A stretch of 24,000 nucleotides of DNA, taken from contig NZ_JBQCCF010000064.1 of assembly GCF_051962475.1 (NCBI RefSeq), forward strand, positions 58,284-82,283. The letters are read 5' to 3'. The notes beneath the pieces are model-generated. The model worked only from the letters and a program-made list of their open reading frames with translations. It was not told where the DNA came from and ran no database searches. The position numbers were made by a program, and so were the translations under genes. Below are positions 11,315 through 12,064 of this stretch, piece after piece. Origin of the DNA: Dyella sp. GTDB taxonomy: Bacteria > Pseudomonadota > Gammaproteobacteria > Xanthomonadales > Rhodanobacteraceae. The number at the start of each line of letters is the position of its first letter. Position 1 is the stretch's first letter.

Positions 11315-12064
11315 TCACACGGTGATCGGCGACGAGAAAGAGCTGCCGCCGCCACCTCCCACGCCGTCGTCCGGGTCCTCGTCCTTCCGCCAGTGCTTGA
11401 CCGGCGGCTTGCATGTCGCCGGCAAGAGGCTCCAGGGATCGACCCAGTGCGAACTGGCCTCCGCGGTCACCCAGCTTTCCGAAAACCGAATGCCGAGATA
11501 AGTCAGTACCGCTCGACACAGAGGACAGATCGGTTTGCTGACGCCGATGCGCTCGATCTCGCGCCCCGGGTGTTTACCGCGCAACAGATAATGCAGCACG
11601 GCATACATCTCTGCGTGCAGATGCGAGCCCCCGCCGGGCTTGAACGTGAGATCGTGATCGGCGTAGTGACGGGTGCCGTACTCCTCCATCGCGTTCATGA
11701 AGCGCTGCGCGAATACGACATGACGTCCATTGCTTTTGCGCACCACTGCGGTAACGCACTGGTCACCCCGGCCTTGCCAGTTGTAGGCGTTATGAACGTT
11801 GTAGGCCACGTCATCGAGGGACGACCGGTTTGAGCTGGTGGTGGGCGCCGCCCCCAGCAGCGCCGCGCTGGCGCGGGCGACGATCTGGCGTCGATGCTCT
11901 GCCTCGCGCTCGCGTTGCGCGAGCTCCTGTCGTCGACGCTCTTCACGCAGTTCCTGGGCGTCACTGGGTGTGAGACGAACCCGCCCCCGCCGGCGGGAGC
12001 AGTCGCGCGCATGGCCGATCCCGTCGGCAGTCAGGTTTTCGCGGCACTCTGGACACCTCGCCAT
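11315..12064 (-). CDS. Zn-knuckle + charged helix + deaminase-fold protein (249 aa, deaminase C)
   Basis: The ATG at 12064 has a perfect SD (AAGGAGA). The N-terminus is MARCPECRENLTADGIGHARDC (C4, C7, H18, C22). An Arg/Glu-rich segment follows (ELREERRRQELAQREREAEHRRQ). The core carries GGSHLHAEMYAVLHYL (H150-A-E152) followed 27 residues later by KPICPLCRAVL (C180-x2-C183), which is the H-x-E...C-x-x-C zinc/catalytic signature of the cytidine-deaminase-like superfamily. The tail is Gly-rich (GVGGGGGSSF). The track's 340-aa version is a 5' over-extension into the upstream gene. Confidence 0.65.
   Translation of the reverse strand: MARCPECRENLTADGIGHARDCSRRRGRVRLTPSDAQELREERRRQELAQREREAEHRRQIVARASAALLGAAPTTSSNRSSLDDVAYNVHNAYNWQGRGDQCVTAVVRKSNGRHVVFAQRFMNAMEEYGTRHYADHDLTFKPGGGSHLHAEMYAVLHYLLRGKHPGREIERIGVSKPICPLCRAVLTYLGIRFSESWVTAEASSHWVDPWSLLPATCKPPVKHWRKDEDPDDGVGGGGGSSFSSPITV

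Follow-up and report, generated by a model that had tools for sequence, protein, structure and literature searches.

DddA of Burkholderia cenocepacia and SsdA of Pseudomonas syringae are antibacterial DNA deaminase toxins that are delivered by type VI secretion systems (T6SSs) and encoded with an adjacent immunity protein. They belong to the SCP1.201-like and BaDTF2 clades, in the C-terminal hairpin division, and form the C-terminal domains of large delivery proteins. Another deaminase clade, OTT_1508, was defined by Iyer, Zhang, Rogozin and Aravind in 2011, with delivery listed as T6SS, Photorhabdus virulence cassette (PVC) or RHS-type, with cytosine as the predicted substrate and with the Xanthomonas protein XCV4233 as a named member (PMC3239186). 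The same work predicted immunity-less, T6SS-associated OTT_1508 deaminases in Xanthomonas, and suggested that the immunity-independent versions of Xanthomonas and Burkholderia may act on eukaryotic hosts (PMC3239186). The clade is recognized by a GxxK motif before CxxC and by an extended loop with a polar residue, usually His, and an aromatic-x-x-P motif (PMC3239186, Table 1), and it shares the helix-4 division of the fold with the TadA/ADAT2 tRNA adenosine deaminases (PMC3239186). In the searchable literature, the only OTT_1508 members with a reported substrate are OLD-1 and OLD-2 of Neurospora crassa, OTT_1508-like proteins that edit mRNA from A to I at adenosines in RNA hairpin loops and edit the stop codons of the neighbouring zao genes (PMC12754623); we found no biochemical characterization of any bacterial OTT_1508-clade deaminase there. 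Here, we analyse a 24,000-nucleotide stretch of Dyella sp. DNA (contig NZ_JBQCCF010000064.1, positions 58,284 to 82,283), hereafter the window, in which the cargo island of a T6SS cluster carries a gene for a predicted 249-amino-acid (aa) OTT_1508-like deaminase, a probable candidate for an effector acting on other cells.

The deaminase gene lies on the minus strand behind a good ribosome-binding site. A mechanical list of open reading frames (ORFs) carries its frame upstream to a TTG at 12337, but we place the start at the ATG at 12064 because the orthologues share a conserved MARC/VARC N-terminus and because of the ribosome-binding site. Translated in this way, 11315-12064 matches exactly the MARC... 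N-terminus, motifs and charged helix given in a preliminary description of this DNA, which had read the protein as a nucleic-acid deaminase. A search of 5.8 billion proteins found homologues in 25 clusters (defined at 90% identity), ranging from 160 to 320 aa and mostly ~240-255 aa long, and comparison with seven orthologues gave Ka/Ks values of 0.04-0.15 (Nei-Gojobori), indicating strong purifying selection. Given these homologues and this constraint, the gene is real, and a chance ORF of GC-rich DNA can be dismissed. Only 86 relatives at E<=0.001 came out of an exhaustive HMMER search of 1.84 billion representatives, and a second, word-indexed search with a profile of distant relatives added zero new proteins.

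The protein matches the Pfam family PF14441 (OTT_1508_deam) with E=2.5e-8 and 34.2 bits against a curated cut-off of 27, over aa 149-213 and thus profile positions 1-62 of 64; the same family is precomputed for 21 of the 25 homologues. Among the toxin-deaminase Pfam families that the preliminary description had listed as possible homes for the protein, OTT_1508 is the only one matched, as MafB19, YwqJ, XOO_2897, Pput_2613, SCP1.201/DddA-like and BURPS668_1122 gave no match even at E<=1. A match to dCMP_cyt_deam_1 fell below its cut-off (14.5 bits versus 25, E=0.03). No match was found in NCBIfam, no family of the PADLOC-DB anti-phage defence models was hit at E<=0.1, and there was no profile match to TadA/ADAT2. 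The best hit in a profile search of PDB sequences had E ~1, leaving no solved structure detectable by sequence.

The catalytic set is intact, with H150, C180 and C183 as predicted zinc ligands and E152 as the predicted proton shuttle. H150 and E152 lie in HLHAEMYAVL and C180 and C183 in PICPLCRAVL, and 27 residues separate E152 from C180. Across an alignment of 26 family sequences, HLHAEM, C180, C183, G174, W207 and P210 are invariant. Both clade signatures are present: GxxK precedes CxxC as G174-V-S-K177-P-I-C180, and H206-W207-V-D-P210 supplies the polar residue and aromatic-x-x-P after strand 4, position 206 being mostly H or N, although other residues such as Y, T, D or G stand there in some of the members or more distant relatives.

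An AlphaFold model built on the family alignment reached a mean predicted local distance difference test score (pLDDT) of 82, and exceeded 90 across most of the core. The elements of the core follow one another as helix 82-91, strands 105-110 and 115-119, helix 124-133, strand 140-143, helix 151-161, strand 170-175 and helix 181-190. H150 and E152 sit at the start of helix 151-161, C180 and C183 open helix 181-190, and strand 170-175 runs between them. In this model HAE and CxxC thus take the canonical deaminase arrangement, at the N-termini of consecutive helices, which agrees with the helix-2/helix-3 placement that the preliminary description had set as a test of its reading. When the model was compared with the PDB by Foldseek, the top 43 matches, and 49 of the 50 listed, had the cytidine deaminase (CDA) fold, being blasticidin-S or cytidine deaminases. 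The earlier claim of a deaminase fold therefore passed in both the profile and the structure comparison, and profile and model together point to a zinc-dependent nucleic-acid deaminase of the OTT_1508-like family.

The likeness to the OTT_1508 clade extends beyond HxE...CxxC and GxxK to the long loop after strand 4, the reduced C-terminal fold elements, the missing immunity gene, and an association with T6SSs in Xanthomonas-group bacteria and with PVC or extracellular contractile injection system (eCIS) and RHS-type delivery. The subfamily found in the window differs from the clade at large in being rare, with ~25 clusters at 90% identity, and ~250 aa long, and it adds a basic patch with a TP motif, a 39-residue charged helix and an acidic, Gly-containing tail; its T6SS-linked branch further adds an N-terminal CCHC knuckle. 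OLD-1 and OLD-2 belong to the same Pfam clade and have the same HxE...CxxC centre, but are eukaryotic, intracellular and regulatory. DddA and SsdA are likewise deaminase-fold toxins linked to T6SS, yet the Dyella protein falls in another clade, is not matched by their Pfam family, and has neither a large delivery protein nor an adjacent immunity gene, and Pfam gave no match to the families of these two toxins. TadA/ADAT2 share the HAE(M/I) motif, but in the Dyella protein the C-terminal helix-4/strand-5 elements are incomplete, and its gene has no housekeeping role.

All large genes of the window are encoded on the minus strand and form part of one T6SS cluster, in the order TssC, Hcp, TagJ/ImpE, TssE, TssF, TssG, ClpV, a ~5.8-kb island, PAAR, a tetratricopeptide repeat (TPR)-methyltransferase, VgrG, DUF6931, Fha and TssK. 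This is a cluster of the Xanthomonas citri ‘group 3*’ type. A review of Xanthomonadales T6SSs placed Dyella clusters closest to X. citri group-3* and noted that their variable region spans ~5 kb and lacks the kinase (PMC6653060). The X. citri group-3* T6SS gives resistance to Dictyostelium predation, and according to a 2020 review an effector of predicted anti-eukaryotic function had yet to be identified for it (PMC7777525). The deaminase gene occupies the variable (cargo) region between ClpV and PAAR in the window and in seven other loci (L001/L008, L003, L005, L006, L007, L009 and L012). In a scan of 185,579 species genomes, one per species, we found it in just four, Dyella ginsengisoli (96% identity), a Lysobacterales metagenome-assembled genome (MAG; 82%), Xanthomonas bonasiae (70%) and Xanthomonas sp. 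AmX2 (69%). D. ginsengisoli has the same island as the window, with 88-98% protein identity, which marks the source of the window as closely related to that species. In all four species and in three metagenomic contigs the gene stands between ClpV and PAAR, with other island genes differing: the Dyella island carries two other deaminase-like genes, an Endonuclea_NS_2 nuclease and unknown genes, and the Xanthomonas islands an Exo_endo_phos protein, a 252-aa unknown protein and a PknS-like kinase; the deaminase gene of strain AmX2 comes directly after ClpV. The deaminase is the only cargo gene common to the variable region across Dyella, the Lysobacterales MAG, Xanthomonas and the metagenomic relatives.

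The same module also occurs as cargo of other delivery systems. Two long proteins, the 2,393-aa SpvB-TcdB-RHS protein P0037 from Ktedonosporobacter and the 1,522-aa RHS protein P0032, end in a module that covers profile positions 5-201, from the basic patch to past the CxxC helix. In both it starts right after the end of the RHS core, and both keep the Gly-rich, hydrophobic-ended tail. A further relative lies behind a PT-HINT domain (P0076), and related modules are fused to an eCIS_core domain in P0047, P0057 and P0099. These toxin complex (Tc)-type and eCIS delivery systems are best known for acting on eukaryotic cells. P0037 and P0032, whose modules occupy the place of the hypervariable C-terminal cargo of Tc (ABC) toxins, share the whole module with the Dyella deaminase, including basic patch, helix, core and Gly tail, but the Dyella protein is free-standing in a T6SS cluster, and its identity to these Tc/eCIS relatives is only ~30%.

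Outside the core, the protein carries an Arg/Glu-rich stretch at aa 23-62, and most or all family members conserve the basic patch, the 39-residue helix and the acidic/Gly/hydrophobic tail. KRKR-type clusters resembling a nuclear localization signal (NLS) occur at the basic patch of many homologues, and the patch is kept in the Tc-type cargo P0032 and P0037. The charged helix is aligned within the family profile (positions 5-201), Tc-type relatives included. The tail is conserved in P0032, P0037 and P0038 as well, and is disordered in the model (pLDDT 35). The preliminary description had the tail ending in Gly5; the run is present (aa 236-240, nt 11345-11359), but nine more residues follow, SSFSSPITV, with a conserved hydrophobic-x-hydrophobic terminus. 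Because the Tc-type and eCIS relatives share the module, helix and tail are conserved parts of a portable toxin module rather than decorations peculiar to T6SSs. In the orthologue from Xanthomonas sp. AmX2 (P0008; L009 10001-11023), the frame shifts within the GGN run that encodes the Gly tract; the usual family C-terminus, SSVSPIGV*, is still legible in another frame, while the protein as annotated runs on for ~100 aa of unrelated sequence. A slippage frameshift at the poly-Gly codons would account for this, or else an error in the assembly.

The N-terminal knuckle has a different distribution. The four residues of the CCHC knuckle seen earlier, C4, C7, H18 and C22, are confirmed, but only ~11 of the 26 aligned family members carry it, one of them with Tyr replacing His. 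It is present at all eight T6SS-linked loci and missing from all four non-T6SS loci, and its region is modelled with low confidence (pLDDT 55-66). No Pfam zinc-finger family was matched significantly by it or by the knuckle of a neighbouring 217-aa protein. The knuckle is a lineage-restricted add-on to the deaminase, and its restriction to T6SS-linked copies fits a possible role as a T6SS-loading signal. A likeness of its spacing to the Rad18/UBZ4-type C2HC finger was considered, but gained support in no test and was dropped.

The gene had been reported to lack an immunity candidate, and this held, since no neighbour is common to the deaminase loci and the downstream gap contains no credible ORF. 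An all-against-all BLASTP among neighbouring proteins from the window and five more loci revealed none that travels with the deaminase, a tblastn of the window's island proteins against nine loci found no shared partner, and the distant homologues, which lie in unrelated chromosomal contexts, have no common neighbour; no neighbour is conserved across the eight T6SS-linked and four non-T6SS loci. The gap had been described as 347 nt long and the largest in the island. It is the largest in either case, but 347 nt is the distance to the second ATG of the next ORF (10967), the first ATG (10988) being 326 nt away. Its ORFs in the list (>=20 aa) are Arg-rich, off-frame ones only, Rfam has no match in the gap or the window, and a promoter and terminator scan around the deaminase gene found no consensus. 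The genes upstream of the knuckle-less homologues in L004 (179 aa) and L002 (318 aa) were considered as a conserved partner and rejected, being unrelated to each other.

We consider it probable, with moderate confidence, that this OTT_1508-like deaminase of a T6SS island is a candidate effector acting on other cells. It would be loaded onto the T6SS spike or tube, possibly via its CCHC knuckle, and injected into a nearby cell, most likely that of a eukaryote that preys on or competes with the producer, such as an amoeba or a fungus. There it would deaminate bases in RNA or DNA, either from A to I, like the fungal OLD proteins, or from C to U, as predicted for the clade, and its basic patch and long charged helix would help it to bind nucleic acids or to enter the nucleus. 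The producer would need no immunity protein if the substrate or a required cofactor were absent from bacteria. We favour a eukaryotic target, giving it slightly less than an even chance, because of the lack of immunity, the Tc/eCIS relatives, the anti-amoeba activity of the homologous T6SS and the NLS-like KRKR clusters. Both T6SS delivery and nucleic-acid deamination in the target cell are steps that we infer. Several points weigh against this reading. An immunity-less nucleic-acid deaminase would be expected to harm its producer unless its specificity were narrow. Neither the deaminase nor its island neighbours contain a MIX, FIX, Rhs, PAAR fusion or DUF4123/DUF1795/DUF2169 domain (Pfam, NCBIfam), although such an effector marker or adaptor is helpful for cargo effectors and not obligatory. 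The Foldseek scores are weak (E ~0.03, TM-score ~0.49 normalized to small targets), so that the fold assignment rests on the consistency of the hits together with the Pfam match. The correlation of the knuckle with T6SS is confounded by phylogeny; since all T6SS-linked copies come from related, Xanthomonadales-like genomes, it is not independent evidence. Nucleic-acid binding or, in Tc toxins, the demands of translocation would also account for basic N-terminal patches. Finally, the effector role is itself one that we infer from sequence and model, with secretion, toxicity and deaminase activity all putative.

An antibacterial deaminase toxin like DddA or SsdA, whose immunity function is non-adjacent, lies among the unannotated island genes or is replaced by other protection, would be in keeping with the antibacterial nature of these characterized T6SS deaminase effectors. 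Related islands do hold antibacterial-looking cargo, with a weak Tsi1-like hit and Lipase_3 in L005 and the Endonuclea_NS_2 nuclease in the window, so that the group-3*-type system is not demonstrably eukaryote-only, and the RHS-encapsulated relatives could be antibacterial too. We nevertheless judge this unlikely, as none of the T6SS and non-T6SS loci compared has a conserved neighbour and the gap offers no credible ORF, as the relatives with SpvB, TcdB_mid and RHS are of the TcB/TcC type and eCIS_core systems are best known for eukaryotic targets, and as the homologous X. citri T6SS is anti-amoeba. Alternatively, the enzyme might stay in the producer as an RNA-editing or nucleotide-modifying enzyme, regulating the T6SS or neighbouring genes or opposing phages. 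The missing immunity gene and the strong purifying selection would suit such a role, as would the editing of adjacent-gene transcripts by fungal OLD proteins and the knuckle-less homologues that stand alone in ordinary chromosomal contexts, one beside a TIR-domain gene. This is quite improbable in our view, because PADLOC gave no match, the neighbours have no editable in-frame TAG, the module is used as cargo by dedicated injection systems, and a gene as rare as this (4 of 185,579 species) fits accessory cargo better than a regulator of a conserved machine. That the best structural matches are blasticidin-S and cytidine deaminases, and that dCMP_cyt_deam_1 is weakly hit, could instead indicate a deaminase of small molecules or free nucleosides, for example an antibiotic detoxifier. 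Such matches reflect the minimal common fold (TM-score 0.4-0.5, 14-23% identity), however, and the specific family hit is to a toxin clade; an enzyme of this kind would also leave the basic patch, the long helix, the T6SS position and the toxin-delivery fusions of the relatives unexplained, and we regard it as highly improbable.

The deaminase was predictable from the 2011 classification, because immunity-less, T6SS-tied OTT_1508 deaminases were described then (PMC3239186). What is added here is a rare ~250-aa subfamily with a fixed architecture, its recurrence as the cargo gene that group-3*-type variable regions have in common, the connection between the entire module and Tc-type/eCIS cargo, and the confinement of the knuckle to T6SS-linked copies. 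On the effector reading, this deaminase, present in the variable region of several genera, is a concrete effector candidate for the Xanthomonas/Dyella group-3* T6SS. In its boldest form, to which we give a low probability, the protein would be a trans-kingdom nucleic-acid editor, an immunity-less effector of an anti-amoeba-type T6SS that reaches eukaryotic RNA or DNA, nuclear or cytoplasmic, by its NLS-like patch and charged helix, deaminates adenosines, as the fungal OLD proteins do, or cytosines, and uses the knuckle as a T6SS loading tag of a kind not recognized before. If true, the group-3* T6SS would gain its missing effector class, and the protein would be the first OTT_1508 enzyme from bacteria to have a defined substrate. 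A compact (~170-aa core), immunity-independent deaminase could also interest base-editor development. The coordinates of the gene, its parts and the landmarks of the cluster are collected in the table.

Table. Features of the deaminase gene and of the surrounding T6SS cluster, in window coordinates.
Feature	Position	Strand	Basis
Coding sequence, 249-aa OTT_1508-like deaminase (predicted)	11315..12064	-	Stop codon 11315-11317; PF14441 above cut-off; homologues; Ka/Ks
Shine-Dalgarno AAGGAG	12072..12077	-	7 nt upstream of ATG; read from sequence
N-terminal CCHC zinc knuckle, aa 1-22 (C4, C7, H18, C22; C-x2-C-x10-H-x3-C)	11999..12064	-	Alignment and orthologue N-termini
Basic patch and R-x-R-x-T-P-x-(E/D)-A motif, aa 23-36, SRRRGRVRLTPSDA	11957..11998	-	R28 invariant, A36 nearly so
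Long Arg/Glu-rich helix, aa 33-71 (39 residues)	11852..11968	-	AlphaFold helix, pLDDT 86-95
Deaminase core, aa 82-213	11426..11821	-	Secondary structure order; Foldseek; most conserved region, 67% mean identity to target
H150-A151-E152, predicted zinc ligand and catalytic glutamate	11609..11617	-	Reverse complement CAC GCA GAG; HLHAEM invariant in 26 sequences
C180-P-L-C183, other two predicted zinc ligands	11516..11527	-	Reverse complement TGT CCT CTG TGT; C180, C183 invariant
C-terminal tail, aa 214-249: LP..CKP, acidic stretch, Gly5, hydrophobic-x-hydrophobic end	11318..11425	-	Conserved in most members
Intergenic gap downstream of deaminase	10989..11314	-	ORF list (>=20 aa): no credible immunity ORF
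ClpV/TssH, upstream border of variable region	14944..17679	-	Pfam AAA_2, ClpB_D2-small, others; 78-95% identical in related loci
PAAR spike-tip protein, downstream border of variable region	8808..9095	-	PF05488, E=9e-27
VgrG spike protein	5304..7643	-	Phage_GPD, Gp5_trimer_C, Phage_base_V

Two other genes of the Dyella island have deaminase-like motifs. A 217-aa protein (window 13641-14294, minus strand) has an N-terminal four-Cys zinc ribbon (C6, C11, C24, C27) and HCAE...PCLSC motifs, and matches no Pfam or NCBIfam family; in carrying an N-terminal zinc module, this putative deaminase resembles the 249-aa protein with its knuckle. A 131-aa protein (window 12210-12605, minus strand) shows CAE...PCDNC in a deaminase-like register, was seen only in the Dyella island among the loci examined, and has no match in Pfam, NCBIfam or PADLOC. 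When the deaminase family profile was compared with these two proteins by hhalign, the motifs lined up but the probability was below 1%, so that the earlier characterization of the 249-aa protein as unrelated to them in sequence stands at the profile level.

The Endonuclea_NS_2 nuclease domain (E=2e-13) lies from window 12883 to about 13580 on the minus strand. Because its mechanical ORF overlaps the 217-aa gene, its true start is probably the methionine of MCTPVF...; no obvious immunity gene is adjacent to it. In L012, a metagenomic T6SS island that contains the orthologue P0004, a 312-aa gene without a family (2498-3436) has a Cys-rich N-terminus, MQCTSPGCNKFW...C...C. Our impression is that small N-terminal zinc modules recur on cargo genes of group-3*-type T6SSs, and the zinc ribbons on these other cargo genes suggest that the knuckle of the deaminase may be a T6SS loading tag.

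An alignment with D. ginsengisoli, judged by eye, shows lower conservation over the first ~100 nt of the gap, next to the deaminase stop codon, and near identity over the other ~230 nt. The conserved part (window 10957-11215, minus strand) contains a small ORF, MNIESMSARHAGNAVLFVYGWPEHRHAR, at about 11043-10957, with GAGGGG before it and a stop that overlaps the start region of the next gene; it may encode a leader peptide or belong to a regulatory 5′ region. That next gene encodes a 344-aa protein (window 9954-10988, minus strand) without a family. Its long Ala/Gly-rich hydrophobic stretch, ATGAKIGGLFADFGTATTAGIGVANAMASLGLTLVSLGL, suggests that the protein is membrane-active rather than an immunity protein. 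OLD-like repair of an in-frame UAG in a neighbouring gene was also considered and rejected: the frame upstream of the next gene carries TGA and TAA stops, and no convincing TAG-interrupted gene was found on the coding strand of the island, in a scan that long open frames render unspecific in 65% GC DNA.

Between PAAR and VgrG, the window encodes a protein with TPRs and a class-I methyltransferase domain (7414-8832, minus strand) that is conserved in all related clusters, with 65-93% identity (L001, L003 and L005-L009). This TPR-methyltransferase, a ‘conserved gene of unknown function’ of the group-3* clusters, is a possible adaptor for cargo loading.

The island also varies between close relatives. 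D. ginsengisoli and the Lysobacterales MAG have an extra ~180-aa ORF between the 344-aa gene and a 186-aa gene (L006 12207-12776, L007 11332-11874), which is missing at window 9938-9954, the two genes standing 15 nt apart there, and of the 344-aa gene only the final 67 aa survive in the Lysobacterales MAG. The island is undergoing rearrangement over short evolutionary times.

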